From: Scyliorhinus canicula
Taxonomy: Eukaryota
Assembly: GCF_902713615.1 (NCBI RefSeq)
Contig: NC_052150.1
Location: forward strand, 11,866,000 to 11,929,999
Length of the DNA stretch: 64,000 bases
Direction: 5' to 3'
Shown: piece by piece, positions 2,121 to 61,236 of the stretch
How the letters are laid out: every line of letters begins with the position of its first letter
Position numbering within the stretch: position 1 is the first letter of the stretch
Notes under the pieces: generated by a model
Told to the model about the DNA's origin: nothing
Databases searched by the model: none
Seen by the model: only the letters and a program-made list of their open reading frames with translations
Position numbers and translations under genes: made by a program

Positions 2121-2303
2121 GGGACATGGTAATGTAGTGGTAATGTCACTGGACTAGTAATCCAGAAGACCAGACGGTGACAGGGTTCAAATCCCACTAC
2201 TGCAGCTGGTGGAGTTTAACTTCAATGAATAAATCTGGAATTAGAGGTTAGCCTCAGTAATGGTGACCATGAGACTATCATTGATAGTTTGTCATTCGCA
2301 TTC
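2121..2303 (+). mobile_element. tRNA-derived SINE, 5' part (interrupted by L1, resumes at about 4560-4630)
   Basis: A/B-box-like TGGTAATGTAGTGG and GGTTCAAATCCC; same family as 42685-42997. Confidence 0.7.
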
Positions 2304-2319
2304 CCCAGCAATGACTTTT

Positions 2320-6611: not shown

Positions 6612-9600
6612 CCACCACTGGGTCGTAGTGCACACACTCACCACCCCTGGGTCCAGGTTCACACACTCACCACCCCTGGGTCCAGGTTCACACACTCACC
6701 ACCACTGGGTCCTGGTGCACACACTCACCACCACTGGGTCCAGGTTCACACACTCACCGCCACTGGGTCCTAGTGCACACACACACCACCACTGGGTCCA
6801 GGTTCACACACTCACCACCACTGGGTCCTGGTGCACACACTCACCACCACTGGGTCCAGGTTCACACACTCACCACCCCTGGGTCCAGGTTCACACACAC
6901 ACTGCCACTGGGTCCAGGTTCACACACTCACCGCCACTGGGTCCAGGTTCACACACTCACCGCCACTGGGTCCTAGTGCACACACTCACCACCACTGGGT
7001 CCAGGTTCACACACTCACCGCCACTGGGTCCAGGTTCACACACTCACTGCCACTGGGTCCTAGTGCACACACTCACCACCACTGGGTCCAGGTTCACACA
7101 CTCACCATCACTGGGTCCAGGTTCACACACTCCCCGCCACTGGGTCCAGGTTCACACACTCACTGCCCCTGGGTCCAGGTTCACACACTCACTGCCACTG
7201 GGTCCAGGTTCACACACTCACTGCCACTGGCTCCAGGTTCACACACTCACTGCCACTGGGTCCAGGTTCACACACTCACTGCCCCTGGGTCCAGGTTCAC
7301 ACACTCACTGCCACTGGGTCCAGGTTCACACACTCACTGCCACTGGCTCCAGGTTCACACACACACCACCCCTGGGTCCAGGTTCACACACTCACCGCCA
7401 CTGGATCCAGGTTCACACACTCACTATCACTGGGTCCAGGTGCACACACTCACCACCCCTGGGTCCTGGTGCACACACTCACTGCCACTAGGTCCAGGTT
7501 CACACACTCACTGCCACTGGGTCCAGGTTCACACTCTCACTGCCCCTGGGTCCAGGTTCACACACTCACCGCCACTGGGTCCTGGTGCACACACTCACTG
7601 CCACTGGGTCCTGGTGCACACGCTCACTGCCACTGGGTCCAGGTTCACACGCTCACTGCCACTGGGTCCTGGTTCACACACTCACCGCCACTGGGTCCAG
7701 GTTCACACACTCACCGCCACTGGGTCCTGGTGCACACACTCACTGCCACTGGGTCCTGGTGCACACACTCACTGCCACTAGGTCCTGGTGCACACGCTCA
7801 CTGCCACTGGGTCCAGGTTCACACACTCACCGCCACTGGGTCCAGGTTCACACACTCACCACCCCTGGGTCCAGGTTCACACACTCACCACCCCTGGGTC
7901 CAGGTTCACACACTCACCACCCCTGGGTCCTGGTGCACACACTCACTGCCACTGGGTCCTGGTGCACACGCTCACTGCCACTGGGTCCAGGTTCACACAC
8001 TCACCACCCCTGGGTCCAGGTTCACACACTCACCACCCCTGGGTCCAGGTTCACACACTCACTGCCACTGGGTCCAGGTTCACACACTCACTGCCCCTGG
8101 GTCCTGGTGCACTCTCACTTCCCCTGGGTCCTGGTGCACACGCTCACCACCCCTGGGTCCAGGTTCACACACTCACCACCCCTGGGTCCAGGTTCACACA
8201 CTCACCGCCCCTGGGTCCTGGTGCACACGCTCACTGCCACTGGGTCCAGGTTCACACACTCACCACCCCTGGGTCCTGGTGCACACGCTCACTGCCACTG
8301 GGTCCAGGTTCACACACTCACCACCCCTGGGTCCAGGTTCACACACTCACCGCCACTGGGTCCAGGTTCACACACTCACTGCCACTGGGTCCAGGTTCAC
8401 ACACTCATCGCCACTGGGTCCTGGTGCACACTCACTGCCACTGGGTCCTGGTGCACACACTCACTGCCACTGGGTCCAGGTTCACACTCACTGCCACTGG
8501 GTCCTGGTGCACACACTCACTGCCACTGGGTCCTGGTGCACACACTCATCGCCACTGGGTCCAGGTTCACACACTCACTGCCACTGGGTCCTGGTTCACA
8601 CACTCACTGCCACTGGGTCCAGGTTCACACTCACTGCCACTGGGTCCAGGTTCACACACTCACTGCCACTGGGTCCTGGTGCACACACTCACTGCCACTG
8701 GGTCCTGGTGCACACACTCATCGCCACTGGGTCCAGGTTCACACACTCACTGCCACTGGGTCCTGGTGCACACACTCCCCGCCACTGGGTCCAGGTTCAC
8801 ACACTCACTGCCACTGGGTCCAGGTTCACACACTCACTGCCACTGGGTCCAGGTTCACACACTCACTGCCGCTGGGTCCTGGTTCACACACACACTGCCA
8901 CTGGGTCCAGGCTCTCACACTCACTGCCACTGGGTCCAGGCTCTCACACTCACTGCCACTGGGTCCAGGCTCTCACACTCACTGCCACTGGGTCCAGGTT
9001 CACACACTCACTGCCCCTGGGTCCTGGTGCACACACTCACTGCCACTGGGTCCAGGCTCTCACACTCACTGCCACTGGGTCCTGGTTCACACACTCACTG
9101 CCCCTGGGTCCAGGTTCACACACTCACCGCCACTGGGTCCAGGTTCACACACTCACTGCCACTGGGTCCTAGTGCACACACTCACTGCCCCTGGGTCCTG
9201 GTGCACACACTCACTGCCACTGGGTCCTGGTGCACACACTCACCGCCACTGGGTCCAGGTGCACACACTCACCGCCACTGGGTCCAGGCTCTCACACTCA
9301 CCGCCACTGGGTCCACACACTCACCGCCACTGGGTCCTGGTGCACACACTCACCGCCACTGGGTCCACACACTCACCGCCACTGGGTCCAGGTTCACACT
9401 CTCACTGCCCCTGGGTCCAGGTTCACACACTCACCGCCACTGGGTCCTGGTGCACACACTCACTGCCACTGGGTCCAGGTTCACACACTCACTGCCACTG
9501 GGTCCTGGTTCACACACTCACTGCCACTGGGTCCTGGTGCACACACTCACTGCCACTGGGTCCTGGTTCACACACTCACTGCCCCTGGGTCCAGGTTCAC

Positions 9601-12600
9601 ACACTCACCGCCACTGGGTCCTGGTGCACACACTCACTGCCACTGGGTCCAGGTTCACACACTCACTGCCACTGGGTCCTGGTTCACACACTCACTGCCA
9701 CTGGGTCCTGGTGCACACACTCACTGCCACTGGGTCCTGGTTCACACACTCACTGCCACTGGGTCCTGGTTCACACACTCACTGCCACTGGGTCCAGGTT
9801 CACACACTCACTGCCACTGGGTCCAGGTTCACACACACACCGCCACTGGGTCCTGGTGCACACACTCCCCGCCACTGGGTCCAGGTTCACACACTCACTG
9901 CCACTGGGTCCAGGTTCACACACACACCGCCACTGGGTCCAGGTTCACACACTCACTGCCACTGGGTCCTAGTGCACACACTCACTGCCCCTGGGTCCTG
10001 GTGCACACACTCACTGCCACTGGGTCCTGGTGCACACACTCACCGCCACTGGGTCCAGGTGCACACACTCACCGCCACTGGGTCCAGGCTCTCACACTCA
10101 CCGCCACTGGGTCCACACACTCACCGCCACTGGGTCCTGGTGCACACACTCACCGCCACTGGGTCCACACACTCACCGCCACTGGGTCCAGGTTCACACT
10201 CTCACTGCCCCTGGGTCCAGGTTCACACACTCACCGCCACTGGGTCCTGGTGCACACACTCACTGCCACTGGGTCCAGGTTCACACACTCACTGCCACTG
10301 GGTCCTGGTTCACACGCTCACTGCCACTGGGTCCTGGTGCACACACTCCCCGCCACTGGGTCCAGGTTCACACACTCACTGCCACTGGGTCCAGGTTCAC
10401 ACACACACCGCCACTGGGTCCAGGTTCACACACTCACTGCCACTGGGTCCTGGTTCACACACTCACTGCCACTGGGTCCAGGTTCACACACTCACTGCCA
10501 CTGGGTCCTGGTTCACACACTCACTGCCACTGGGTCCTGGTGCACACACTCACTGCCACTGGGTCCAGGTTCACACACTCACTGCCACTGGGTCCTGGTG
10601 CACACACTCACTGCCACTGGGTCCAGGTTCACACACTCACTGCCACTGGGTCCTGGTGCACACTCACTGCCACTGGGTCCTGGTTCACACACTCACTGCC
10701 ACTGGGTCCTGGTGCACACACTCACTGCCACTGGGTCCTGGTGCACACACTCACTGCCACTGGGTCCTGGTGCACACACTCACTGCCACTAGGTCCTGGT
10801 GCACACGCTCACTGCCACTGGGTCCAGGTTCACACACTCACCGCCACTGGGTCCAGGTTCACACACTCACCACCCCTGGGTCCAGGTTCACACACTCACC
10901 ACCCCTGGGTCCAGGTTCACACACTCACCACCCCTGGGTCCTGGTGCACACACTCACTGCCACTGGGTCCTGGTGCACACGCTCACTGCCACTGGGTCCA
11001 GGTTCACACACTCACCACCCCTGGGTCCAGGTTCACACACTCACCACCCCTGGGTCCAGGTTCACACACTCACTGCCACTGGGTCCAGGTTCACACACTC
11101 ACTGCCCCTGGGTCCTGGTGCACTCTCACTTCCCCTGGGTCCTGGTGCACACGCTCACCACCCCTGGGTCCAGGTTCACACACTCACCACCCCTGGGTCC
11201 AGGTTCACACACTCACCGCCCCTGGGTCCTGGTGCACACGCTCACTGCCACTGGGTCCAGGTTCACACACTCACCACCCCTGGGTCCTGGTGCACACGCT
11301 CACTGCCACTGGGTCCAGGTTCACACACTCACCACCCCTGGGTCCAGGTTCACACACTCACCGCCACTGGGTCCAGGTTCACACACTCACTGCCACTGGG
11401 TCCAGGTTCACACACTCATCGCCACTGGGTCCTGGTGCACACTCACTGCCACTGGGTCCTGGTGCACACACTCACTGCCACTGGGTCCAGGTTCACACTC
11501 ACTGCCACTGGGTCCTGGTGCACACACTCACTGCCACTGGGTCCTGGTGCACACACTCATCGCCACTGGGTCCAGGTTCACACACTCACTGCCACTGGGT
11601 CCTGGTTCACACACTCACTGCCACTGGGTCCAGGTTCACACTCACTGCCACTGGGTCCAGGTTCACACACTCACTGCCACTGGGTCCTGGTGCACACACT
11701 CACTGCCACTGGGTCCTGGTGCACACACTCATCGCCACTGGGTCCAGGTTCACACACTCACTGCCACTGGGTCCTGGTGCACACACTCCCCGCCACTGGG
11801 TCCAGGTTCACACACTCACTGCCACTGGGTCCAGGTTCACACACTCACTGCCACTGGGTCCAGGTTCACACACTCACTGCCGCTGGGTCCTGGTTCACAC
11901 ACACACTGCCACTGGGTCCAGGCTCTCACACTCACTGCCACTGGGTCCAGGCTCTCACACTCACTGCCACTGGGTCCAGGCTCTCACACTCACTGCCACT
12001 GGGTCCAGGTTCACACACTCACTGCCCCTGGGTCCTGGTGCACACACTCACTGCCACTGGGTCCAGGCTCTCACACTCACTGCCACTGGGTCCTGGTTCA
12101 CACACTCACTGCCCCTGGGTCCAGGTTCACACACTCACCGCCACTGGGTCCAGGTTCACACACTCACTGCCACTGGGTCCTAGTGCACACACTCACTGCC
12201 CCTGGGTCCTGGTGCACACACTCACTGCCACTGGGTCCTGGTGCACACACTCACCGCCACTGGGTCCAGGTGCACACACTCACCGCCACTGGGTCCAGGC
12301 TCTCACACTCACCGCCACTGGGTCCACACACTCACCGCCACTGGGTCCTGGTGCACACACTCACCGCCACTGGGTCCACACACTCACCGCCACTGGGTCC
12401 AGGTTCACACTCTCACTGCCCCTGGGTCCAGGTTCACACACTCACCGCCACTGGGTCCTGGTGCACACACTCACTGCCACTGGGTCCAGGTTCACACACT
12501 CACTGCCACTGGGTCCTGGTTCACACACTCACTGCCACTGGGTCCTGGTGCACACACTCACTGCCACTGGGTCCTGGTTCACACACTCACTGCCCCTGGG

Positions 12601-15600
12601 TCCAGGTTCACACACTCATGGCCACTGGGTCCTGGTGCACACACTCACTGCCACTGGGTCCAGGTTCACACACTCACTGCCACTGGGTCCTGGTTCACAC
12701 ACTCACTGCCACTGGGTCCTGGTGCACACACTCACTGCCACTGGGTCCTGGTTCACACACTCACTGCCACTGGGTCCTGGTTCACACACTCACTGCCACT
12801 GGGTCCAGGTTCACACACTCACTGCCACTGGGTCCAGGTTCACACACACACCGCCACTGGGTCCTGGTGCACACACTCCCCGCCACTGGGTCCAGGTTCA
12901 CACACTCACTGCCACTGGGTCCAGGTTCACACACACACCGCCACTGGGTCCAGGTTCACACACTCACTGCCACTGGGTCCTAGTGCACACACTCACTGCC
13001 CCTGGGTCCTGGTGCACACACTCACTGCCACTGGGTCCTGGTGCACACACTCACCGCCACTGGGTCCAGGTGCACACACTCACCGCCACTGGGTCCAGGC
13101 TCTCACACTCACCGCCACTGGGTCCACACACTCACCGCCACTGGGTCCTGGTGCACACACTCACCGCCACTGGGTCCACACACTCACCGCCACTGGGTCC
13201 AGGTTCACACTCTCACTGCCCCTGGGTCCAGGTTCACACACTCACCGCCACTGGGTCCTGGTGCACACACTCACTGCCACTGGGTCCAGGTTCACACACT
13301 CACTGCCACTGGGTCCTGGTTCACACGCTCACTGCCACTGGGTCCTGGTGCACACACTCCCCGCCACTGGGTCCAGGTTCACACACTCACTGCCACTGGG
13401 TCCAGGTTCACACACACACCGCCACTGGGTCCAGGTTCACACACTCACTGCCACTGGGTCCTGGTTCACACACTCACTGCCACTGGGTCCAGGTTCACAC
13501 ACTCACTGCCACTGGGTCCTGGTTCACACACTCACTGCCACTGGGTCCTGGTGCACACACTCACTGCCACTGGGTCCAGGTTCACACACTCACTGCCACT
13601 GGGTCCTGGTGCACACACTCACTGCCACTGGGTCCAGGTTCACACACTCACTGCCACTGGGTCCTGGTGCACACTCACTGCCACTGGGTCCTGGTTCACA
13701 CACTCACTGCCACTGGGTCCTGGTGCACACACTCACTGCCACTGGGTCCAGGTTCACACACTCACTGCCACTGGGTCCTGGTGCACACTCACTGCCACTG
13801 GGTCCTGGTTCACACACTCACTGCCACTGGGTCCTGGTTCACACACTCACTGCCACTGGGTCCAGGTTCACACACTCACTGCCACTGGGTCCAGGTTCAC
13901 ACACACACCGCCACTGGGTCCAGGTTCACACACTCACCGCCACTGGGTCCAGGTTCACACACTCACTGCCACTGGGTCCAGGTTCACACACTCACTGCCA
14001 CTGGGTCCTGGTGCACACACTCACTGCCACTGGGTCCAGGTTCACACACTCACCGCCACTGGGTCCAGGTTCACACACTCACTGCCACTGGGTCCTGGTG
14101 CACACACTCACTGCCACTGGGTCCTGGTTCACACACTCACTGCCACTGGGTCCTGGTGCACACACTCACCGCCACTGGGTCCAGGTTCACACGCTCACTG
14201 CCACTGGGTCCTGGTTCACACACTCACTGTCACTGGGTCCAGGTTCACACACTCACCGCCACTGGGTCCAGGTTCACACACTCTCTGCCACTGGCTCCAG
14301 GTTCACACACTCACTGCCACTGGATCCAGGTTCACACACTCACCGCCACTGGATCCAGGTGCACACACTCACCGCCACTGGGTCCAGGTTCACACACTCA
14401 CCGCCACTGGGTCCAGGTTCACACACTCACCGTCACTGGGTCCAGGTGCACACACTCACCACCCCTGGGTCCTGGTGCACACACTCACTGCCACTGGGTC
14501 CAGGTTCACACACTCACTGCCACTGGGTCCTGGTGCACACGCTCACTGCCACTGGGTCCTGGTGCACACGCTCACTGCCACTGGGTCCAGGTTCACACAC
14601 TCACTGCCACTGGGTCCTGGTTCACACACTCACCGCCACTGGGTCCAGGTTCACACACTCACCACCCCTGGGTCCTGGTGCACACGCTCACTGCCACTGG
14701 GTCCTGGTGCACACGCTCACTGCCACTGGGTCCTGGTTCACACTCACCGCCACTGGGTCCAGGTTCACACACTCACTGCCACTGGGTCCAGGTTCACACA
14801 CTCACCACCCCTGGGTCCAGGTTCACACACTCACCACCCCTGGGTCCAGGTTCACACACTCACCACCACTGGGTCCAGGTTCACACTCACTGCCACTGGG
14901 TCCTGGTGCACACACTCACTGCCACTGGGTCCTGGTGCACACACTCATCGCCACTGGGTCCAGGTTCACACACTCACTGCCACTGGGTCCAGGTTCACAC
15001 ACTCACTGCCACTGGGTCCAGGTTCACACTCACTGCCACTGGGTCCAGGTTCACACTCACTGCCACTGGGTCCTGGTGCACACACTCACTGCCACTGGGT
15101 CCTGGTGCACACGCTCACCACCACTGGGTCCAGGTTCACACACTCACTGCCACTGGGTCCTGGTGCACACACTCACTGCCACTGGGTCCAGGTTCACACA
15201 CTCACTGCCACTGGGTCCTGGTGCACACGCTCACTGCCACTGGGTCCTGGTGCACACACTCACTGCCACTGGGTCCTGGTGCACACACTCACCACCACTG
15301 GGTCCTGGTGCACACACTCACTGCCACTGGGTCCAGGTTCACACACTCACTGCCACTGGGTCCTGGTGCACACGCTCACCACCACTGGGTCCTGGTGCAC
15401 ACACTCACTGCCACTGGGTCCTGGTGCACACACTCATCGCCACTGGGTCCAGGTTCACACACTCACTGCCACTGGGTCCTGGTGCACACGCTCACCACCA
15501 CTGGGTCCAGGTTCACACACTCACTGCCGCTGGGTCCTGGTTCACACACTCACTGCCACTGGGTCCAGGCTCTCACACTCACTGCCACTGGGTCCAGGCT

Positions 15601-17758
15601 CTCACACTCACTGCCACTGGGTCCAGGCTCTCACACTCACTGCCACTGGGTCCAGGCTCTCACACTCACTGCCACTGGGTCCAGGTTCACACACTCACTG
15701 CCCCTGGGTCCTGGTGCACACACTCACTGCCCCTGGGTCCAGGTTCACACACTCACTGCCCCTGGGTCCTGGTGCACACACTCACTGCCACTGGGTCCTG
15801 GTGCACACACTCACCGCCACTGGGTCCAGGTGCACACACTCACCGCCACTGGGTCCAGGCTCTCACACTCACTGCCACTGGGTCCAGGCTCTCACACTCA
15901 CCGCCACTGGGTCCACACACTCACCGCCACTGGGTCCTGGTGCACACACTCACCGCCACTGGGTCCACACACTCACCGCCACTGGGTCCAGGTTCACACT
16001 CTCACTGCCCCTGGGTCCAGGTTCACACACTCACCGCCACTGGGTCCTGGTTCACACACTCACTGCCACTGGGTCCAGGTTCACACACTCACTGCCACTG
16101 GGTCCTGGTTCACACACTCACTGCCACTGGGTCCTGGTTCACACGCTCACTGCCACTGGGTCCTGGTGCACACACTCATCGCCACTGGGTCCTGGTTCAC
16201 ACACTCACTGCCACTGGGTCCAGGTTCACACACTCACCACCCCTGGGTCCTGGTGCACACACTCACCACCCCTGGGTCCAGGTTCACACGCTCACTGCCA
16301 CTGGGTCCAGGTTCACACACTCACTGCCACTGGGTCCTGGTGCACACTCACTGCCACTGGGTCCTGGTTCACACACTCACTGCCACTGGGTCCAGGTTCA
16401 CACACTCACTGCCGCTGGGTCCTGGTGCACACACTCACCGCCACTGGGTCCAGGTGCACACACTCACCGCCACTGGGTCCAGGCTCTCACACTCACTGCC
16501 ACTGGGTCCTGGTGCACACACTCACTGCCCCTGGGTCCAGGCTCTCACACTCACCGCCACTGGGTCCACACACTCACCGCCACTGGGTCCTGGTGCACAC
16601 ACTCACCGCCACTGGGTCCACACACTCACCGCCACTGGGTCCTGGTGCACACACTCACTGCCACTGGGTCCTGGTTCACACACTCACTGCCACTGGGTCC
16701 AGGTTCACACACTCACTGCCACTGGGTCCAGGTTCACACACTCACCGCCACTGGGTCCTGGTTCACACACTCACTGCCACTGGGTCCTGGTGCACACACT
16801 CACTGCCACTGGGTCCAGGTTCACACACTCACTGCCACTGGGTCCAGGTTCACACACTCACTGCCACTGGGTCCTGGTTCACACACTCACTGCCACTGGG
16901 TCCAGGTTCACACACTCACTGCCACTGGGTCCAGGTTCACACACTCACTGCCACTGGGTCCTGGTGCACACTCACTGCCACTGGGTCCTGGTGCACACTC
17001 ACTGCCACTGGGTCCAGGTTCACACACTCACTGCCACTGGGTCCAGGTTCACACACTCACTGCCACTGGGTCCAGGTTCACACACTCACTGCCACTGGGT
17101 CCTGGTGCACACACTCACTGCCACTGGGTCCAGGTTCACACACTCACTGCCACTGGGTCCAGGTTCACACACTCACTGCCACTGGGTCCTGGTGCACACT
17201 CACTGCCACTGGGTCCTGGTTCACACACTCACTGCCACTGGGTCCTGGTGCACACACTCACTGCCACTGGGTCCAGGTGCACACACTCACTGCCACTGGG
17301 TCCAGGTTCACACACACACTGCCACTGGGTCCAGGTTCACACACACACCGCCACTGGGTCCAGGTTCACACACTCACTGCCACTGGGTCCTGGTGCACAC
17401 ACTCACTGCCACTGGGTCCAGGTTCACACACTCACTGCCACTGGGTCCAGGTTCACACACTCACTGCCACTGGGTCCAGGTTCACACACTCACTGCCACT
17501 GGGTCCAGGTTCACACTCTCACTGCCACTGGGTCCAGGCTCTCTCACTCACCGCCAGTGGGTCCAGGGTCACACACTCACTGCCACTGGGTCCAGGTTCA
17601 CACTCACTGCCACTGGGTCCAGGTTCACACACTCACTGCCACTGGGTCCAGGTTCACACTCACTGCCACTGGGTCCAGGCTCTCTCACTCACCGCCAGTG
17701 GGTCCAGGGTCACACACTCACTGCCACTGGGTCCAGGTGCACACACTCACTGCCCCTG
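6612..17758. repeat. 29-bp minisatellite array, about 11.1 kb (roughly 385 units), in EXOSC7 intron 4
   Basis: Consensus CACTGGGTCCAGGTTCACACACTCACTGC with variants CCTGGTGC, ACCGCC, ACCACC, GGCTCTC and shorter deletion units; degenerate units at both edges. Confidence 0.99.
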
Positions 17759-17834: not shown

Positions 17835-18131
17835 TTTTTTTCATGGGATGTGAGTATCGCTGGGCTGGCCAGAATTTGTTCCTCGTCATCAATTGCACTT
17901 GAGAAGGTGGGGTTATGTACACTTCTGGAGATTGCAACAATTTTATTCCATGAAGCAGGCTAGTTCTGGGAGAATCTAATCATGAACCAATCCAGTCCAT
18001 GTGTTATAAATAAACCCATGGTATTGTTAGGGGTGGATTTCCAGGATTGTGACCCGACCACAGTTAAGGAACAGCGATATATTTCCAAGTTAGGATGGTG
18101 TGTGGATAGGAAGGGAGCGTACAGGTGGTTA
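17835..18131 (-). mobile_element. LINE (CR1/L2 group) 3' fragment, left half of the ERV target
   Basis: Same repeat occurs uninterrupted at about 34300-34550 and 61940-62170; sequence resumes after the 3' LTR. Confidence 0.7.
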
Positions 18132-18694
18132 TGAGGATGTGAAGCAAGGGTTAATAGCCAGAAAGTGCCAGGTGGAACATCACGAATTAAAAGAATATGT
18201 TATTGAAGCCATTGAAGGATGTTCAAGGTAAGGGAGTGTGACTATAAGCCAAACAGCCTTGAGAAACAAGGCGAATGGCCGGATGATGAGATATGAAATA
18301 TGGGGGCCGCTTGCAATTATAGCTAACATTTACTAATTAAGCTAAAACTGCTACATTATCATGTGCCAATAGATAACCTCAATATCTATCTCAATGTCTG
18401 TAAAATTATGTATTAAAAATATGACAATAACAAATTAATCATGTACTAAACATTTGGTAAAAACAAGCTGTAATCTGTACTGGAGGCAAGCTCAAGTGAA
18501 TGTAAGAGACAACCTCTTAAAAAAACATATAAAAGAAGGGTGCTTTGAGCAAGACTTTGGCACTCTCAGAGAGGTGTTTCTTTGGAACACCTAGAGAGCA
18601 GCCCCGATCGCAATAAAGAATATTTTGAAGTACGGACGTGTTCGAGATTGTTTCTTCCGGACTGAGAGACATGTGAATTAGACACGCATTCACA
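18132..18694 (+). repeat. ERV 5' LTR (563 bp)
   Basis: TGAGGATG...ATTCACA; TATAAAA at 18528-18534; AATAAA at 18612-18617; about 8 substitutions and no indels seen versus the 3' LTR. Confidence 0.97.
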
Positions 18695-18696
18695 TT

Positions 18697-18715
18697 TGGT
18701 GGCAGCGGTGGGATT
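18697..18715 (+). promoter_or_regulatory. Primer-binding site, tRNA-Leu
   Basis: TGGTGGCAGCGGTGGGATT, 2 nt after the LTR, complementary to the 3' end (…AATCCCACCGCTGCCACCA) of vertebrate tRNA-Leu(AAG/TAG). Confidence 0.9.
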
Positions 18716-19286
18716 TCAAAGAGTCTCCGCTGAGACTCACGGCGTAAGCGACTGGTCGAGTTCGGGAGCGAAGGAGGAATTGGGCCACCACTGTGAGTAA
18801 ATTTTTTTTTGCCACTTTGGTATTCCCCTCCGCTGTACCGTCCGCGACTCGGCCCCGCTGCCAGTGCTCAGGGACGCTCCTACGAAATCCAGGTCAGTCC
18901 GGCGAACCCGTTTAAGGGAGGGAGTGTGGCCCCTACAGTTATAGCCACGGGCACAGTCAAGGACTAGTGTCTTAAGGGAGGGTGTGTAGCCCCCACAGTT
19001 ATAGCTACAACAGAGGTTTCGGCATTATTATGATCCTTGCTTTTGTTTAAAAGTGCCCCCGCAATAAGAGGCTTTAGAAGGGTGCGTGATCAACCCCAAG
19101 TTAAAACTATAACAAGGACGTTATAACCTTGTAGTTAGATAGGCTTGCAGGCACGGATGAGCCTGCCTGAATTGGGCAACGGAGCAGGATAACTCCGTTT
19201 AAATTCAAGATTGAATAAAGTGGTCCAGGACCATTTCACCAAATTAACAATAATCGCAGGGATCATTAACTGCCAATAGTGTAGAG

Positions 19287-19440
19287 ATAGGTAATACGTT
19301 AGATACAACCTCCGATAGTGGAAGCGCGCTTCAAACCTTGTGTGAGCAATATCCGGAATATTCCAAGCAACTGAGACAATTGTCAGGAGAATTGCATAAA
19401 AATTTAGGAGAAGAAAAATGGCCACTGGTGGAAAACTAAT
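19287..19440 (+). pseudogene. gag: Putative decayed gag N-terminus (matrix-like)
   Basis: GAG-ATA-GGT-AAT reads (M>I)GNTLDTTSDSGSALQTLCEQYPEYSKQLRQLSGELHKNLGEEKWPL then breaks; MG-like start and WP motif resemble class I ERV matrix; position fits gag. Confidence 0.45.
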
Positions 19441-21599
19441 GCATTAAAATTGGGTATAAAATTGACAGAGAAAGAAATAGTTAAAACAGCCAAGGTCTTA
19501 AAAAAAGGAAGGCACATATGGGAAAAGAACCAAGTCATTAGGCTATCCGCCTTGAATCTGTATAGCAATCCATGTGAGTTTAAGCTTAAGTGAGATAAGG
19601 TGCTGTCAGGGACTGCAGAGTTCCCAAATCTTATCTCCCAGAATTCTGACATAGTAAACTGCTTTGTTACTGATATTCAGGCCTTTGTGTGAATATTTTC
19701 ACCCCTAACATTTAGTGTAAGTCTGGAAGGATTTGCTGAGCTGGACGCCGCTCGAGCCGGTGGACAAGGCGAGTAGTCAAACCTTTGACCGCCTAAAATT
19801 AGAATCACTTGGCAAGGCGGACAGACGGCGAGGTAACATCCAATAAATCTAGTATCAAGGCCAAATGAGTAAAAAAGTCAGTTTAAAACATTTTTTGGTT
19901 TTTGAAGAGCAAAATACTCTGGTAAAAAAAACAATGATCAAAGATGGGTGTGATTTCTGTGGAACAGAGAAAAATGGTGAGATACACAGAAGTAAAGATA
20001 AGACAAATAAAGTTAGAAGCACAAATGATAAATTCAACCTTCACACCATTTGGAAGACAGGCTGGTTAAAAGGAATTGAGCTCTAACTCCTTTAAACAAA
20101 GCAATCAAGTGGGTAAAGATAGTGTAAAGACCTCACAAAACTGCCAACAATTACGGCTAACAACTGTCCCGGAATGTCTCAAGGAGAGAAAAACAAAATC
20201 AAATTAAGTGAAGTCCAAAAGATCAGAAAGGGGCTAAAACACTCAATTAGTTTTGTTGAGGAATATCTGAGGATGACTAACCCCCCCCTCCCAAAACGAA
20301 AAAATGGGGAGGAAAATCAATACAAGGTTACGGTTAGAAACTTAAGAATGGATACATGGCGAGAATAACTTCAGATCGTTTCAAGCCGTCCAGATAAATT
20401 CAGCAGTAATTCAACTCATTTGAAATAAAAGAAAAATAAACATCCAGTAATGTCTCTTTCCAAAAACCGGTTAAATAACGAACATTGAAAATTGAAAGAA
20501 AGGATGGGTAATGTCTAAGGTCACATAGCAGACGGAGATGGCATCATGCCAAGTTCTCCACCACTTTCGATTCTGTACAAAAATTTAACCATTTCAGCAA
20601 GCAGGTCATCTGCACAAAGAAATATACATCTCTAAGAATAGCTAATGCCTCTATAATTAATCAGTGGAAATTGTCTTAAATGGAATGACACAGATAAAGT
20701 TTTCGAAGGAGAATGAAAAATTTTGTTCAGTATTTTAATTGAGCTCCATTTTAGAGAAAGAGTGAGAGGGTTAGAGAGAGAGAGAGAGAGAGCCAGTGAC
20801 AGAGAGAGAGACTGATAGAGACAGCGCAAGTTGAGAGCGCGAAAGGGAGTGAGTCAGGGAGAGACAGAGACGGGGAGCGGTAGAGAAGGAGCGACAAGAG
20901 TTCCAGAGACAGACAGAGTTACGTAGAGAGATAGACAGAGCGAGAGAGAGAGAGAGAGGGAGTTTTAGGCATCTATAGAGAGAGTTTTAGGCATCTAAAC
21001 TTTGTTCTGAACTATTCACTGTCTCTGTATTCAGACTTTGACTTCAGATCTTTACTTTTAAAAGTTTTGTTACGAGCTGTGATTACTTGAAAGCTTCAAA
21101 TTGTCTAGGCATTGCCTTTAAAGATTATAGTTTGAGTACAGTTAACAATTTTTTCTTTTCAAAGGCTATCATATTGACATTTCCAGGGTAATTTTGATAC
21201 ACAGGGAATTTTAATCAGGGTGCGAGATTACGTGTGTAGGAATAGGAAAGTATTGGTTTTGTGGTGTTCAGCGGAGGTAGGGATGGTTGAAGTGCATGTG
21301 ACAGGTGTGATCAAGCCGTGTTTCATTGGTTCAGGGTTGGAACTTCCCTGACACAGATAATCTTCAGTAGGGTGAAACGGAACTGTCTCACAATGCAGAT
21401 GTTTTAATTATGAGATTGCAGAATTACTTATAAACAACAGATGGGTAAATGAAATATGTCCATGAGTTTCAATAACATATTGTGTTCCTTGAAAAACTTG
21501 ATAACGGGAATTTGGCAGCACTCCAACTTTTACTCCCAGCCATTTGAGTGAAAAATTAAAAACAAGTTTAGAGATGCGAATGGCATCATTCCAATTTAT

Positions 21600-22005
21600 C
21601 CACCCACTATACGCCCCTTTTTGTCTCTGCAAGACAATTAACCCTTTCAACAAGCTTTTGTGTGTAATCCAGAAGATGTCTTGACACTCCCATGCGGGTT
21701 TGCCTGTGAGCTCTGGCCTTTTAAATTCTGATAAAGTAATGAACAGTCCACACAGCTGAAGATGCATTTTAATTGGAACTTACAAATCTTAAGTTTTGAA
21801 TTTTCACCCTCTTAACGACCCAGACCTAACCTTTCACAGATGGAAGTGCTTCCATCGGTGAAAGGGGGGAGCAGTTATCAGGATATGCTATAATCAACCA
21901 GGGTGGGGAGACAGTAGAATTAGCAGCATTTGAGACTCCGTTTTCAGCACAGCAAGCAGAATTGTTCGCACTAATACACGCATGCGGACTAGGAGCAGGC
22001 ACAAA
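21600..22005 (+). pseudogene. pol: Decayed pol connection region and frameshifted RNase H N-terminus
   Basis: CL*ALA at 21701-21718; PLNDPDLT then a frameshift at about 21834 into FTDGS...GYAII...SAQQAELFALIHAC; second frameshift at about 22000 into KVNIYTDSRY. Confidence 0.8.
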
Positions 22006-23478
22006 GTAAATATTTATACAGACTCCAGATATACTTTTGGAGTTGTACATGATTTTGAACAATTATGGAAGAACAGAGGATTCTTAACGTCTGCTGGCAC
22101 CCCAATTTCCCATCAGCAGCTAGTAACCCAGTTACTCCAAGCTCTTATGCTCCCAGAAAAGGTAGCAGTGATAAAGTGTACTGCCCATACAAAAGGAAGA
22201 ACTCCAGTAGATGAAGGAAATAGGCAGGCCGACCACCAAGCAAAAGAAGTCTCAAAGTCAAAAGCCATGGTAGTGCCTAAAATGATGAGCCAGACTAAAA
22301 GCTCAAAAGACAAGTCTCCCTCTAAAAAAAAACCTATGCCGACCATTACTGATGTAATCCAGCTACAGGAGGACGCTCCTGCTAGCGATATAAAGTTATG
22401 GGAAGAATTGGGATGTATATATGATAAAGAAAGTAAGCTGTGGGTCACCCCAGCAGGGCAGACATGTATGCCCGATGCTTTGGCAGCCTGGGTGGCCGCA
22501 TGTGTACACTTTGCAACTCACTGTGGTGCTCGCGCTACAGGTGATATATTGTTAAAAACCTGGTGGCATGCCAGACTGCAGGAGATAGCCCAACGAATTA
22601 GCAATCGCTGCTTGATATGTCAGCAGTATAACCCTGGGAAGGCTGTCCCCTGCGAGCAGGGGAAAACACCATTGCCCGAGGGTCCCTTTGAGACCCTGCA
22701 ACTGGACTACATTGAGTTGGAAAGATGCCAGTGTTATAAGCATGTATTAGTGATTGTTGACGTGTTTAGTAAATGGATAGAGGCCTATCCTACTGTAGAT
22801 AATAAGGCTTCAACTGTAGTAGAAGTTCTTATGCGTGAAATTGTACCAAGATTTGGACTTCCATATCGTTTAAGCTCTGATAATGGACCTCACTTTGTGG
22901 GACAGATCAATAAAGAATTCTGCACTCAACTAGGAATTAAACAGCAGTTACACTGCGCCTACAGACCCCAGGCAGCTGGGATAGTGGAAAGAGCTAACCA
23001 GACTTTGAAAACCAAACTTGCTAAGCTGCAAGCAGAGACTGGAGCCACCTGGCTCAAACTTTTACCTGTTGCACTTTTCCAGATCAGAACTACCCCTGCG
23101 GGAAAGACTCGATTGAGTCCCGCTGAAATCTTGTACGGAAGACCCCTTCGCACCCCCTGGGACTGTCATACATCCCAAGACATTCAGTTCCACCACATGA
23201 CTACAGAAAAGGCTAATTATATAATAGCCTTGACTGAAGTCTTAAAGAGTCTCCACTTGCGAGTACGTGCCACGCAAGAGGAAGTGCCACCCTTAGCTAG
23301 CTCCGATATTGTACAACCGGGAGACCATGTGATGATCCGCAATTGGATACGGAAGGGGTTGGAACCACGTTGGGAGAGACCATTTCAAGTTCTCCTAACT
23401 ACCCCCACAGCAGTCAAAATTGAAGGGCGTAATGCATGGATTCACATGCACCATTGTAAACTTATAAAATTTGCGTGA
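21982..23478 (+). CDS. pol: Retroviral pol 3' ORF: RNase H C-half plus complete integrase (498 aa)
   Basis: NIYTDSRY and GNRQAD (RNase H); HFATH...CLIC zinc finger; LQLD, SDNG and E exactly 35 residues later (DD35E); C-terminal PRWERPF motif; no internal stop. Confidence 0.9.
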   Translation: MRTRSRHKVNIYTDSRYTFGVVHDFEQLWKNRGFLTSAGTPISHQQLVTQLLQALMLPEKVAVIKCTAHTKGRTPVDEGNRQADHQAKEVSKSKAMVVPKMMSQTKSSKDKSPSKKKPMPTITDVIQLQEDAPASDIKLWEELGCIYDKESKLWVTPAGQTCMPDALAAWVAACVHFATHCGARATGDILLKTWWHARLQEIAQRISNRCLICQQYNPGKAVPCEQGKTPLPEGPFETLQLDYIELERCQCYKHVLVIVDVFSKWIEAYPTVDNKASTVVEVLMREIVPRFGLPYRLSSDNGPHFVGQINKEFCTQLGIKQQLHCAYRPQAAGIVERANQTLKTKLAKLQAETGATWLKLLPVALFQIRTTPAGKTRLSPAEILYGRPLRTPWDCHTSQDIQFHHMTTEKANYIIALTEVLKSLHLRVRATQEEVPPLASSDIVQPGDHVMIRNWIRKGLEPRWERPFQVLLTTPTAVKIEGRNAWIHMHHCKLIKFA

Positions 23479-23533
23479 TCACTAACTCTCATTTAAAGTT
23501 CTAGGTACATGTGGCTGATCGTTCGACTACAGG

Positions 23534-25183
23534 ATGAGACTGCCTTTTGTCCTCACGATCCTCGCTAGCACACTACTGTGTGCAACCGCTCGAGACCGGC
23601 GATGCAGACCCAGCTCAAGGATTCTGTGCCTTTATCGTAAGGACATGACTGCCAACAAAACCACAGATGAGACCTTGCAGACGACGACCACAGTAGAAAA
23701 CAGCACCACCATCATTCATCAAGATGAGCAGAAGCCTCGATTCCTGGCTACCCGCGGATCCCTGACCTGCGTTCGCTACGCTTGCCGGTGGGACTACCGA
23801 TGTACAAGGAAAAGCAGGCCACGAGTTCCTGCAGATAAGACTATCCATACTAACCCACCTACCAGGAGGAAGCGGGCAACACACCATGTGACTGCAAATT
23901 CATTCCTGTTTATGTCTTATACTTATGCAAAGAAATTGAATGTCTCCTCTTGTTGGGTATGTACGCATGTTCCCAGCCATGCCCATGGGGGTATTCCTTT
24001 GGTCCCTCTTTCCTATTTGATCGAGGAGGTTGCAGAATGGGCTTTGCGACGTAATCATACCGATTCTGATAATGATACACAAGATATGATAGATTGGCAG
24101 TCGGCTGGGTTCAATATGAACAGGTTTCAAGGATGGTGGTGGCCGAAGTTTAATGCAACCCGTCAGCCGCCCTACCTGATCCTCCCCAAGTATGCTAAAT
24201 TTCCAAAAGGCAGTATATGTTTTAAAAAGGATCATGCCAATGGGACCTACCCAGTAGGTACTAGCCAATGTAACCAGACCTTGATTTGGCAACCACCCAT
24301 AACTAATCTTACACAAAAGGGCTTGTTCACCTTTAATTGGTCAGCAATAAAGAACCAGACTAGTGGCGGCCCCTGGAGGGGGGAACCGACTAGAATCATG
24401 ATGACGGATGCCAAGGGGAACTTGACCTCGTACAATGATACCTATTTTGTATGCGGACATAAAGCATATCCCTGGTTGCCGGAAAATTGGTCGGGTTCTT
24501 GCTATATGGGCTTTGTAGTCCCTGGTATCGCCCATTATACAGACCTATCCAACCATCCCCATGCCCGATCCACTAGGTCCATTGTGCCTTGGGAGGTAAT
24601 AGCTACGGTCCTTTGGCCGCAGTTCGGCAGTATTAGATCTCTCCAAAAAGTCACCCAGCTCCGGGATATATTGGAGCAGGTGGCCAATGATACCGCGGAA
24701 GGACTCAGTGAGCTCAGCGCAGAGTTAGTAGCTGTTCGGACGGTTGCCTTACAGAACCGTATGGCTCTAGACTACCTCCTCGCCAGCAAGGGAGGTACAT
24801 GTGCTGTGGTGGGTTCTGAGTGCTGTACTTATATCCCTGATAGCTCGGAGAACATTACGCACCTAGTGGGCCACATTAGAGATGGGGTAAAGAGACTCCG
24901 CCAGTCCTCCTCAGACGACTGGGGATGGCTGTGGTCTAGCTCCTGGACCACCTATCTGTTTCATGGATTTATTATCTTTATCGCTTTTTGCATTTTGCTG
25001 TGTATTATTATAACCTGTGTTAAATGCTTTTGTAATCGTTTAGGCGCTTCTGTGATGCCACAGATGCTGCAGCGGCTTTCCCAATTAGACCCGCAGGACT
25101 TAGTACGTGCCGACAATGTGTATGAGGATGTAGAGCCAAATTTCCCGGAGGCATTCCTCAGACTCTCAAGGATAAGTTTCTGA
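23534..25183 (+). CDS. env: Retroviral envelope glycoprotein, gamma-type, intact (549 aa)
   Basis: Signal peptide, RRKR (111-114), CWVC, RSTR (345-348), fusion peptide, immunosuppressive domain LQNRMALDYLLASKGGTC, CX6CC, TM helix, YEDV tail motif; upstream ACTAAC branch point and AG acceptors at 23504 and 23532. Confidence 0.96.
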   Translation: MRLPFVLTILASTLLCATARDRRCRPSSRILCLYRKDMTANKTTDETLQTTTTVENSTTIIHQDEQKPRFLATRGSLTCVRYACRWDYRCTRKSRPRVPADKTIHTNPPTRRKRATHHVTANSFLFMSYTYAKKLNVSSCWVCTHVPSHAHGGIPLVPLSYLIEEVAEWALRRNHTDSDNDTQDMIDWQSAGFNMNRFQGWWWPKFNATRQPPYLILPKYAKFPKGSICFKKDHANGTYPVGTSQCNQTLIWQPPITNLTQKGLFTFNWSAIKNQTSGGPWRGEPTRIMMTDAKGNLTSYNDTYFVCGHKAYPWLPENWSGSCYMGFVVPGIAHYTDLSNHPHARSTRSIVPWEVIATVLWPQFGSIRSLQKVTQLRDILEQVANDTAEGLSELSAELVAVRTVALQNRMALDYLLASKGGTCAVVGSECCTYIPDSSENITHLVGHIRDGVKRLRQSSSDDWGWLWSSSWTTYLFHGFIIFIAFCILLCIIITCVKCFCNRLGASVMPQMLQRLSQLDPQDLVRADNVYEDVEPNFPEAFLRLSRISF

Positions 25184-25207
25184 GGGCTGTGTGATCATGG
25201 AATGATC

Positions 25208-25218
25208 AAAGGGGGGAG
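25208..25218 (+). promoter_or_regulatory. Polypurine tract
   Basis: AAAGGGGGGAG directly before the 3' LTR. Confidence 0.9.
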
Positions 25219-25781
25219 TGAGGATGTGAAGCAAGGGTTAATAGCCAGAAAGAGCCAGGTGGAACATCACGAATTAAAAGAATATGTTATTGAAGCCATT
25301 GAAGGATGTTCAAGGTAAGGGAGTGTGACTATAAGCCAAACAGCCTTGAGAAACAAGGCGAATGGCCGGATGATGAGATATGAAATATGGGGGCCGCTTG
25401 CAATTATAGCTAACATTTACTAATTAAGCTAAAACTGCTACATTATCATGTGCCAATAGATAATCTCAATATCTATCTCAATGTCTGTAAAATTATGTAT
25501 TAAAAATATGACAATAACAAATTAATCATGTACTAAACATTTGGTAAAAACAAGCTGTAATCTGTACTGGAGGCAAGCTCAAGTGAATGCAAGAGACAAC
25601 CCCTTAAAAAAACATATAAAAGAAGGGTGCTTTGAGCAAGACTTTGGCACTCTCAGAGAGGTGTTTCTTTGGAATACCTAGAGAGCAGCCCCGATCGCAA
25701 TAAAGAATATTCTGAAGTACGGACGTGTTCGAGATCGTTTCTTCAGGACTGAGAGACATGTGAATTAGACACGCATTCACA
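25219..25781 (+). repeat. ERV 3' LTR (563 bp)
   Basis: Direct repeat of 18132-18694; preceded by the PPT and followed by GTTA. Confidence 0.97.
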
Positions 25782-26215
25782 GTTATATTCCCCATGCACC
25801 TGCTGCATCTGTCCTTCTAGATGGTGGAGGTCGAGGGTTTGGTAACTGCTGTCAGAGGAACTTTGGCACGTTGTTGTAGTGCATCTTTAAATGGCACGCA
25901 CCATGTCAATGTGTGTCAGTGGTGCAGGGGGTGAATGTTTAATGTGGTGAATGGGGGTGCCAAACAAGCGGGCTGCTTTGTCTTGGATGGTGTCGTGCTT
26001 CTTGACTATTGTTACGGAGCTGCACTCTCCAGGCAAGTGGAGAGCGTTCCATCACACTCCTGACTTGTGCCGCGCAGATAGTGGACAGGATTTGAGGAGT
26101 CAGGAGGTGAAATGCTTGCTATAGAATTCTCAGCTTCTGACCTGCTCTCGTAGGCACAATATTTGAATAGGTGGTCCAGTTACGATGTCAGTGGTAACCC
26201 CAGTACGTTGATGAA
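25782..26215 (-). mobile_element. LINE fragment, right half of the ERV target
   Basis: Continues 17835-18131 across the GTTA TSD; similar to about 62330-62720. Confidence 0.7.
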
Positions 26216-27111
26216 GGACTGCCCCAGTATAATCCACATATTTTAAAGATTCCAAAATTTGCTAGCTGTGTCTTATCCTTTCATGTCATTACTTCACATA
26301 ATTAATTCTAGTGGCTGGGTGTGACAGCTTGATGGTTATAACATTGGTATATACTGGCTGGGTTGTGTATATATACATGCAGTATCAAATCTCTGGCTGG
26401 GTGCCCCTGGTTCTTTGAAACAAAGTAATATTTTTTCTGCGGAAAACATTAGCTTGGATTACAGGGAATATCTTTGAATAGAATCAGTTACCATGGGAAC
26501 ACAGGGTTACCCAGGGAGTCAGGGCTGTGAGCGAATCACTCTCATTCTCCTTCAGCTTTCTTGCTGAATCTGCTGTGTTTTACTAAGTCGGGCAACGTGC
26601 TGCATTCGCGTTTCTGGCTGTTTTGAGGCAGGACTATTCTAAGAATCCTTACAGTGCAGAAGGAAGCCATTCGGCACATCGAGTCTGCACTGATCGCCTG
26701 AAAGAGCACCCTACTTAGGGCCCACTCCCCTGCCCCAACCCCGTAACCCAACATACTGATCATGGCCAATCCACCTCACCTGCATATCTTTGGTAGCTTG
26801 ATCAAGAGGTCAGATTAACTTGAGAGGGTTGTGGAACTGGAGGAGGTGAGCGAGGGCCAGGGTCATGGATGAATTTGAAAGCAAGCTTGATTCAAGTGTG
26901 TGCACATTTAGGAGTTGTGCTATCACTTGGCCGCTGTAGTGTCCACTTCCGGAGATTGCAGCAATCTTATTACATGAAGCAGGACACAGGCTAGTTCTGG
27001 AAGAGTCTAATCCCGATGCCATTGCACTCAGTGTTAGAGGCGCCATTTAGTTAAAGGGGATCAGGGGATATGGGGAGAAGCAGGAGAATGGGGATAAGAA
27101 AAATATCAGCC

Positions 27112-38280: not shown

Positions 38281-40893
38281 TGGATGCAGCTAGTTAAGGG
38301 GATCGGGTAGATGCAGTCAGGGAAGGCACCGGGGCCGGATGGGTTCCCGGTGGAATTTTATAAAAAGTTTGTGGACCTAGTGGGCCCCTTGCTGGTGCGG
38401 ACACTCAACGAAGCGTGGGAAGGGGGGACTTTGCCCCCGACGATGTCACGGGCGCTGATCTCGTTAATTTTAAAGAGGGACAAGGACCCCCAGCAGTGTG
38501 GTTCATACAGGCCCATATCTCTCCTCAACGTGGATGCTAAGGTGCTGGCAAAAATCCTGGCCACCAGGATAGAGGACTGTGTGCCAGGGGTTGTGCACGA
38601 GGACCAGACAGGTTTTGTGAAGGGAAGGCAGCTGAACACGAATGTGCGGAGATTGTTGAATGTCATCATGATGCCGGCGATTGAGGGGGAGGCAGAGATA
38701 GTGGTGGCGCTGGATGCAGAGAAGGCCTTCGATAGAGTGGAGTGGGGGTACTTATGGGAGGTGTTGGGGAGGTTTGGATTTGGTGAAGGGTTCTTTAGAT
38801 GGGTAAGGCTGCTATATGAGGCCCCGATGGCGTGCGTGGCCACGAATAGGAAGAGGTCGGAGTACTTCCGGCTTTACCGAGGGACCAGGCAGGGTTGCCC
38901 CCTGTGCCCCTTGTTGTTTGCACTGGCAATCGAGCCGCTGGCGATGGCGTTGAGGGATTCAGAGGTGGAGAGGCTTGGTGCGAGGTGGAGAGGAACATAG
39001 GGTGTCGCTGTATGCCGATGACCTGTTACTGTATGTGGCGGACCCAGTGGGAGGGATGCCGGGGGTGATGGAGTTGCTAGCTGAGTTTGGGACCTTTTCA
39101 GGTTATAAATTAAATTTAGGCAAGAGTGAGGTGTTTGTGGTGCACCCTGGAGACCAGGAAGAAGGAATTGGTAGGCTCCCGCTTAGGCGGGCAGGGGAGA
39201 GCTTTAGGTACCTGGGGGTGCAGGTGGCCAGGGACTGGGGGACTCTTCACAAGCATAATTTCACCAGACTTGTAGATCAGATGGAGGAGGAATTCAAGAA
39301 GTGGGACATGCTGCCATTATCGTTGGCGGGGAGGGTACAGTCCGTCAAAATGACGGTGCTTCCGAGGTTCTTGTTCCTCTTTCAGTGCCTGCCTATCTTT
39401 ATCCCCAGGGCCTTCTTTAGGAGAGTGACTAGCAGTATTCGGAGCTTTGTGTGGGCGCATGGGACTCCGAGAGTGAGGAGGGTGTTCCTGGAGCGAGGGA
39501 GGGATAGAGGCGGGCTGGCGCTGCCCAACCTCCAGGGGTACTATTGGGCGGCCAATGTGTCAATGGTGCGTAAATGGGTGAGGGAGGGGCGGCGTGGAAA
39601 AGAATGGAGATGGCGTCATGTAGAGGTACGAGCCTGGGTGCCATGCTAACGGCGCCGTTGCCGCTCTCCCCTAAGAGGTTTACCACGAGCCCGGTGGTGG
39701 CGGCGACCCTAAGAATCTGGGGACAGTGGAGGCGGCATGGGGGGGGAAACAGGGGGCTCGATGGAGGCTCCACTGGGTGGCAACCATCGGTTCATCCCGG
39801 GGAACAAGGATGGGGGATTTAGGGGGTGGCAAAGGGCGGGCATCAGCAAATTGAGGGACCTGTTTATTGGCGGGAGGTTTGCGGGCCTTGGGGAACTGGA
39901 AGATAAATTTAGCCTTCCCCAAGGGAACATGTTCAGATACTTGCAGGTAAAGGAGTTTGCTAGGCGACAGGTAGAGGGATTCCCTTTGCTGCCCTCGCAG
40001 GGGACAATGGACAGAGTGCTTTCGGGGGTGTGGGTCGGAGAGGGGAAGGTGTCTGACATCTATAAGGTAATGCAGGAGGTGGAGGAGTCGTCAGTGGAGG
40101 AGCTGAAGGCTAAATGGGAGGAGGAACTCGGGGAGCAGATGGAGGACGGGACTTGGGCGGATGCCTTGTACAGAGTCAACTCTTCCTCCTCATGTGCGAG
40201 GCTTAGTCTCATCCAATTTAAGGTGCTGCACCGGGCCCACATGTCCAGGACTGGGATGAGTAGGTTCTTTGGGTGTGAGGATAGGTGCGCCAGATGTTCG
40301 GGGAGTCCAGCGAACCACGCCCATATGTTCTGGGCATGCCCAGCACTGGAAGAATTCTGGAAGGGGGTGGCGGGGACGGTGTCGAGGGTGGTCGGATCCA
40401 GGGTCAAACCAGGGTGGGGACTCGCGGTTTGTGGAGTTGCGGTAGAGCCGGGAGTGCAGGAGGCGAAAGAGGCCGGTGTCCTGGCCTTTGCGTCCCTAGT
40501 AGCCCGTCGAAGGATTCTGCTACAGTGGAAGGATGCAAGGCCCCCAAATGTGGAGACCTGGATCAGTGACATGGCGGGATTTATAAAACAGGAACGGGTC
40601 AAATTTGCCCTGAGAGGATCAATACAAGGGTTCTATAAACGATGGCAGCCTTTTCTGGACTTCCTGGCGCAAAGATAGGTATCTTGGTCAATAGCAGCAG
40701 CAACCCGGGAAGGGGGGGGGGGGTGTTCCTTATTGTAGTTTCTATTCTGTAACTTTATATTGTGTTAATTTGCTTTGTTGTTAAAATGCTGTGTTGTGCA
40801 TGGGGGTGGGGCGAATGTTTATGATGGTTAATATTATTGTTATTTTTGGTATTTTACTATGGTGCGTTATTGTTGTGTAAATTCAAAATTTTT
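38281..40893 (+). mobile_element. 5'-truncated L1-clade LINE: RT domain to 3'UTR, three frameshifts
   Basis: KAPGPDG, YRPISLLN, LDAEKAFD, GTRQGCP, LYADD, CCHC-like CARC...HMFWAC; frame changes at about 38960, 39580 and 39740; same family as 2320-4559; 3' end fused to half a V-SINE. Confidence 0.95.
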
Positions 40894-61066: not shown

Positions 61067-61236
61067 GGGCTGGTTTAGCTCAGTGGGCTAGACAGCTGGT
61101 TTGTGATGCAGAACAAGGCCGGCAATGCGGGTTCAATTCCTGTACCAGCTTACCCAAACAGGTGCTGGAATGTGGTGACTAGGGGCTTTTCACAGTAATT
61201 TCATACTTGTGACAATAAAAGGTTATTATTATTATT
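61067..61236 (+). mobile_element. Short tRNA-derived SINE ending in (ATT)n
   Basis: GGGCTGGTTTAGCTCAGTGG head, GGTTCAATTCC B-box, GGGGCTTTTCACAG tail. Confidence 0.75.

Follow-up and report, generated by a model that had tools for sequence, protein, structure and literature searches.

A probable trans-mobilised recombinant class I provirus with a decayed gag-to-RT half and open integrase and env frames in Scyliorhinus canicula

The window analysed here is a 64,000-nucleotide stretch of the Scyliorhinus canicula genome (assembly GCF_902713615.1, contig NC_052150.1, positions 11,866,000 to 11,929,999 of the forward strand) that holds an endogenous retrovirus (ERV) at 18132-25781. In this provirus the half running from gag to reverse transcriptase (RT) is decayed, and it is followed by a block of RNase H (RH), integrase (IN) and env, the last two in open frames. 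We consider it most probable, at roughly 0.6, that the provirus belongs to a non-autonomous family of class I ERVs, recombinant in origin and mobilised in trans. IN is likely a passenger rather than one half of a split virus.

The decayed 5′ half is present in other copies

The element has no intact gag-pro-pol. The longest plus-strand stop-free stretches between the primer-binding site (PBS) and 21900 are 81, 77, 61 and 61 codons, so that an earlier note on this DNA, which had put the upper limit for open reading frames (ORFs) at about 75 amino acids, was largely right, with two stretches slightly above. Using frameshift-tolerant scoring with a profile of 37 pol proteins and comparison with shuffles, none of 35 domain-by-region tests for protease, RT, thumb and connection in 18715-21830 rose above the shuffles, and RH itself gave z = 44. 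A tblastn comparison with 120 pol-type proteins found no separate match upstream of about 21800 and one gapped extension from 21796. With a nine-protein profile of the nearest relatives, RT and connection traces were absent upstream of RH, and a weak tether trace ending near 21645 reached a score that none of 60 shuffles attained. The earlier statement that no capsid, protease or YxDD motif is recognisable is borne out, as no such signal was found between the matrix relic and RH. It had also reported traces of matrix and connection. The connection trace was rejected, since 18 of 60 shuffles score as high, as was an RT-like blip near 20347, whose score is matched by 7 of 60 shuffles and by the reverse strand.

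The matrix trace stands. It matches the Scyliorhinus torazame protein P0232 at 45% identity over 82 residues with two frameshifts; the later part of P0232 has no match downstream of the relic. A search with the 61-codon stretch at 19254 against 1.84 billion representatives returned 5 matches, 3 of which are Gag-like N-termini, one of these from S. torazame. Two of the matched proteins, P0232 and P0233, have no Pfam family assigned; we infer that they are Gag N-termini from their N-terminal Met-Gly, PSAP/PPxY-like motifs and position in the element. P0231 and P0235 were dismissed as chance matches driven by repeats, and the ESM Atlas, where all matches to the matrix trace were under 0.9, was of no use. 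Judged from these sequence comparisons, both ends of the 5′ half derive from a retrovirus, and what lay between them has decayed or been deleted or replaced. Within the interior, an AG-rich simple-repeat tract (20759-20969) is followed by T-rich sequence.

Contigs of 6 public runs were aligned to the window, and 20 of 24 runs share 36-45% of the interior's words. Runs X4 and X16 are DNA-like, and the RNA status of X1, X7 and X8 is an automated guess. In X4 and X16 all bins of the element are covered. In the decayed half, single contigs reach depths of 219-252 in X4 and 248-475 in X16, and the values for IN are 225 (X4) and 362 (X16); near-exact flank contigs have depths of 3.55 and 4.14, far below the element contigs. 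These values point to tens of copies of the decayed half and of RH-IN, with the reservations that contig depth is not copy number, that it cannot rank genes or give level or strand, and that the best DNA-like run may be the source of the window sequence itself. In X1 the entire element, including the decayed half, is present in contigs with a depth of about 2,200-3,900 and 94-99% identity. The element is about 10-fold deeper than the right flank repeat in X1, whereas in X4 and X16 the repeat is about 30-fold deeper than the element. Because this ratio is reversed, X1 behaves as an RNA-like run, and transcription along the whole element is likely for relatives of the locus.

The defects of the provirus are observed in these contigs as well. 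X1 carries the decayed 5′ half at 96-99% identity, and its contig at 19409-19715 crosses the matrix frameshifts with no gaps. A contig of X7 (21874-22498) crosses the RH break (22005) gap-free there; a contig of X1 also crosses it but ends 19 bases beyond, under the bridging threshold. Both breaks are thus common to several copies, as seen in contigs and not at mapped insertion sites, and contig depth in the DNA-like runs is high; the decay therefore preceded the spread. The proposal that the RNA was already defective when it was copied is supported by these data.

Other copies in X4, X16 and X2 skip 70 bases of the interior (21114-21185). Joints that skip about 7,700 bases were not accepted as proof of an empty allele, because both flanks are a high-copy repeat. 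Splicing to env or RH is seen in none of the 15 of 95 joints listed, nor in the 5 joints of the junction comparison, although absence from contigs proves nothing. No related loci were found in viral and metagenome contigs.

A sharp junction at the start of RNase H

The nearest pol relative that bears RT is P0001, the S. canicula gene model LOC119973770. It carries capsid-like, RT and connection sequence, which the provirus lacks. P0001 is 84% identical to the window in the N-terminal half of RH and 92% in the C-terminal half of IN, and gave no match upstream of 21833. In a tree of RH-IN (20 rows, class I rows only, midpoint root), P0001 is the sister of the window with support 100/99, at 95% over 301 columns, and both fall within the starred shark/ray clade. 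The upstream segment therefore cannot be aligned to this coding relative, and its boundary is sharp.

The contig comparison of the junction and RH-IN rests on 40 of 58 substitutions, 7 indels and 23 of 58 loose ends. In 3 of the 4 runs compared (X7, X8 and X16), sisters that have the 5′ half in common with the provirus depart from it at 21823, with long loose ends (124-255 bases) behind that point in all three and a several-fold drop in contig depth beyond it in X7 and X8. An X1 contig (21778-21855, depth 3158) spans both sides and is independent of the window, so the junction is not an assembly artefact. Of the origins that had been proposed, recombination between 21.8 and 22.0 kb agrees best with the data, and the boundary can now be placed at 21823-21833. 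A second departure point of sister elements lies at 21680, with long loose ends in X7 and a short one in X1.

The RNase H-integrase frame is broken in this sub-lineage

A frameshift near 22005 divides RH, leaving its N-terminal half (21833-22006) in another frame, and a stop codon follows at 22007-22009. Downstream, a 489-codon open stretch (22009-23475) matches Pfam RNase_H, rve and MLVIN_C. IN has HHCC, DDE and an MLV-type C-terminal domain and groups with class I pol; no RT for genus placement was detectable in the provirus. The earlier note had described 3.2 kb of IN and Env from about 22000 without a stop or frameshift: the frames at 22009-23478 and 23534-25183 are indeed open, but the conserved block starts at 21833 and includes the frameshifted RH. 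Since RH is frameshifted and the upstream frames are closed, we see no evident translation route to IN in this copy; other copies may differ. Two bases are missing at 22324 in X1 (depth 3291 of 4462) and in X7 (depth 74.8 of 74.8), a second frameshift ahead of IN.

For selection tests, 34 of the 40 substitutions were classed, the remainder lying upstream of RH (4) or at the break sites (2). The synonymous share is 3/11 for changes private to the window, 2/6 for those private to X7, 9/13 for the X8 lineage and 3/4 for the others, compared with a neutral expectation of 0.22-0.31. Taken together, the private changes of the window and X7 (5/17 synonymous, 12/17 nonsynonymous, with a synonymous share of about 0.29 expected under neutrality) look neutral, and the Fisher contrast between them and the X8 lineage gives p 0.063. 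The window has 11 private changes in 640 nt vs 4.5 expected from the divergence of its long terminal repeats (LTRs) (p 0.007), so part of them must date from a time when copying of the lineage still went on. At successive sites the alleles of the X8 contig make up 74-79%, 47%, 17% and 100% of the X16 depth, which suggests mosaics.

Anatomy and age of the provirus

Table 1. Features of the provirus, in coordinates of the window.
Feature	Position	Strand	Remarks
Left target-site duplication, 4 bp	18128..18131	+	same bases as 25782-25785
5′ LTR	18132..18694	+	563 nt; TATA-like box 18526; AATAAA 18612
Primer-binding site, 18 nt	18697..18714	+	complement ends in CCA
Leader	18715..19286	+	splice-donor-like sites 18793, 18893; 37-nt direct repeat
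gag matrix relic	19287..19578	+	frameshifts near 19429, 19467; 45% to P0232
Decayed or replaced interior	19579..21832	+	without capsid, protease or RT signal; present in other copies
Junction, decayed half / RH-IN-env block	21823..21833	+	frame break near 21830; P0001 similarity from 21833
RNase H, N-terminal half	21833..22009	+	Pfam RNase_H 2-54; 84% to P0001; ends in stop
Open frame: RNase H C-half, linker, integrase	22009..23478	+	HHCC, DDE, C-terminal domain; first in-frame Met 22147
env ORF, 549 aa, gamma-type	23534..25183	+	acceptor-like AG in 23503-23504 region
Polypurine tract region	25204..25218	+	
3′ LTR	25219..25781	+	563 nt
Right target-site duplication, 4 bp	25782..25785	+	

The element has the hallmarks of a class I ERV (Table 1), with LTRs that end in TG..CA, a short target-site duplication (TSD) of GTTA at both ends, a PBS that begins 2 nt past the 5′ LTR, and a polypurine tract (PPT) directly ahead of the 3′ LTR; the description of these as clean was accurate. 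The PBS is presumably of the tRNA-Leu type. The leader has a folding z of -2.3 and likely holds a packaging signal, as predicted from its sequence. It also contains a 37-nt direct repeat (18912-18948 and 18972-19008, 89% alike), both copies of which are hairpin-prone and which is a candidate packaging or dimer signal.

The LTRs differ by exactly 8 mismatches over 563 nt with no gaps, as had been estimated. This is 0.71% per LTR, which corresponds to about 10 million generations if the rate of the epaulette shark applies. That rate is 7e-10 per generation (confidence interval 1.4-14.1e-10), for a different shark family (PMC10587355). The integration that had been called recent is thus young only relative to the decay of the 5′ half. 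The chance of no new stop in IN plus env is 0.37 at 0.71% divergence and 0.09 at 1.7%, counting point changes only and assuming that 4.5% of substitutions create stops. At LTR-level divergence, therefore, the open IN and env frames require no selection after insertion.

The provirus is embedded in a very-high-copy repeat (17891-18131 and 25782-26300) with a depth of 9,500-37,000 in the DNA-like runs. A 29-bp satellite of about 11 kb (6615-17758; 388 copies, 90% matches) stops about 370 nt to its left. Elsewhere in the window are an ORF of 526 codons for an endonuclease-RT of the long interspersed nuclear element type, plus a further RT piece (49246-51467, +), a second, split RT (38311-39649, +), and a tRNA-Ile predicted by ARAGORN (61067-61154) that is possibly derived from a short interspersed nuclear element.

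How the family may move

In our preferred reading, that of a recombinant family mobilised in trans, template switching likely fused the decayed gag-to-RT half with the RH-IN-env block of a coding relative. The LTRs, PBS, leader and PPT are retained and the TSD is clean, so that the RNA carries the signals needed in cis. The transcript would be packaged together with the Gag-Pro-Pol of a competent relative, whose proteins would copy it into DNA and integrate it in trans; the cis signals, the shared breaks and the boundary are observed, and the helper provirus, the co-packaging and the direction of the event are parts of the mechanism that we infer. Co-packaging would permit strand switches, which may account both for the junction where RH begins and for the patchy sharing of alleles downstream. 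RH-IN is likely a passenger in this sub-lineage, open merely because little time has elapsed, and Env may still come from a spliced RNA, a candidate route.

Several observations weigh against this reading. A lineage free of the RH break exists (X8 contig 21859-22498, depth 37.6; 305 of 652 depth in X16), and in X8 and all of the X16 depth listed the difference at 22325 is frame-neutral. Among the 23 of 58 loose ends, no long one enters RH from other upstream sequence, so that the decayed half may often be followed by an unbroken RH-IN, although contigs this short do not allow the halves to be phased. Of 74 conserved columns IN departs from the consensus at one only, and it keeps HHCC and DDE. 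The synonymous excess of the X8 lineage has p 0.003, but 10 of its 13 sites lie in two short clusters. The event at 21823 may be a gain of RH-IN here or a loss in the sisters, and P0001, a gene model without protease and IN core, may be a defective element or a stitched model. No helper that shares this LTR was seen, no genome having been searched for one.

Alternative explanations

The best-placed competitor, though an unlikely one, is that the family is a semi-autonomous Env donor, kept because it supplies Env to an env-poor helper or blocks receptors, with RH-IN again a passenger. The env ORF is full length, with CxxC, furin-like sites, an immunosuppressive domain, CX6CC and a membrane anchor, all motifs of a gamma-type Env as in class I, and an acceptor-like site lies immediately ahead of it. 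Among 12 of 84 indels none falls in env, and an X1 contig at 24809-25208 has 14 changes and no gaps. Against an Env donor, the nearest annotated envs, both S. canicula models at 95% (P0193) and 86%, are short at the N-terminus, and copies in X4 and X16 have a deletion of 969 bases in env (joint 23914-24884). In addition, 4 of the only 6 env differences listed are nonsynonymous, and age alone predicts an open env. Besides the SU/TM site, a further basic furin-like site lies some 110 residues from the start of Env (23591-23875), and this suggests a cleaved N-terminal extension.

More doubtful is a bipartite-like arrangement, in which elements with the decayed half supply a stand-alone RH-IN protein and Env, under selection, to a partner carrying Gag-Pro-RT, this locus being a broken member. 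It draws on the lineage described above, since about half of the X16 depth and the main X8 contig are without the RH break and in frame at 22324-22325, and on the synonymous bias of that lineage. A pyrimidine-rich stretch (0.68 pyrimidine) ending in AG lies ahead of RH, and the shark relatives P0122 and P0125 are annotated from a Met at the RH head; this Met, however, is an ordinary internal residue in the RT-RH polyprotein P0004. IN normally requires Gag-Pol for particle entry. Further, the main contig of X1 runs unspliced through 21823, the frame is broken in the main forms of both X1 and X7, and the sisters that depart at 21823 make up most of the X7 and X8 depth. No partner was seen, again with no genome searched for one. 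The suggestion that the lineage is kept to supply IN and Env therefore finds no support in the window's own sub-lineage, with its shared RH frameshift, neutral-looking changes and second frameshift in X1 and X7; the sister lineage without these breaks leaves room for it.

Co-option of env by the host at this locus, in the manner of syncytin or Fv4, with the remainder decaying in place, is very improbable. The annotation of an identical env as an NCBI protein, which clusters with the S. canicula env P0193, would be in line with it, but the decay far exceeds the LTR divergence and is common to other copies. The abundant X1 contigs differ from the locus at many sites and hence derive from its relatives, and the locus lies within a repeat beside an 11-kb satellite, a multi-copy context. 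That the provirus is an assembly chimera of two elements is hardly credible: multi-copy families are difficult to assemble, but the TSD and LTRs match and the X1 contig at 21778-21855 joins both sides.

Known systems and implications

VL30, like ETn/MusD, is a comparable mouse element, and SFFV may be named with them. In the koala, recKoRV likewise combines a coding virus with an older degraded, transcribed, multi-copy retroelement (KoRV with PhER), keeps LTRs and TSDs and has multiplied in the germ line; its ORFs, however, are highly disrupted and KoRV ends surround a PhER middle, whereas here a degraded 5′ half precedes open IN and env (PMC6112702). The D-type elements of cattle ERVK[2-1-LTR] form a defective clade, complemented in trans and recombining with competent elements, whose central segment aligns poorly. 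They differ in being betaretroviral, with a competent partner catalogued in cattle, and in having no intact ORF, unlike the provirus here with its open IN and env (PMC10924933). Mouse ETn/MusD are similar in that ETn is a highly transcribed non-autonomous LTR element with traces of retroviral homology and is mobilised in trans, but ETn has no coding capacity and MusD has lost env (PMC6466679). The wheat elements RLG_Sabrina/WHAM and RLG_Quinta are non-autonomous LTR elements that retain one ORF long-term; they keep GAG(-Pro) and have lost RT and IN, the opposite half, and are plant Ty3/Gypsy elements, not Retroviridae (PMC9744471, PMC11302176). Defective proviruses that retain env are known, e.g. 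Fv4 (PMC10536682). Among sharks, the part consulted of a fish ERV review mentions elephant-shark ERVs only (PMC4977317).

The open-licence literature yielded no description of this family or of a lineage with dead gag-pro-RT and open IN and env, although supplements or Dfam/Repbase may hold the family. The family is a real variant of a known phenomenon, one that has probably not been described, and is unusual in that its env stays open. Were the bipartite-like arrangement true, it would be a division of labour without description for Retroviridae in the open-licence literature searched. LTR dating and ORF decay may conflict inside a single provirus. If the reading that we prefer is true, the pattern of recKoRV and the cattle D-type would extend to cartilaginous fish, with env retained, and a catshark model species would have a transcribed, multi-copy ERV family.

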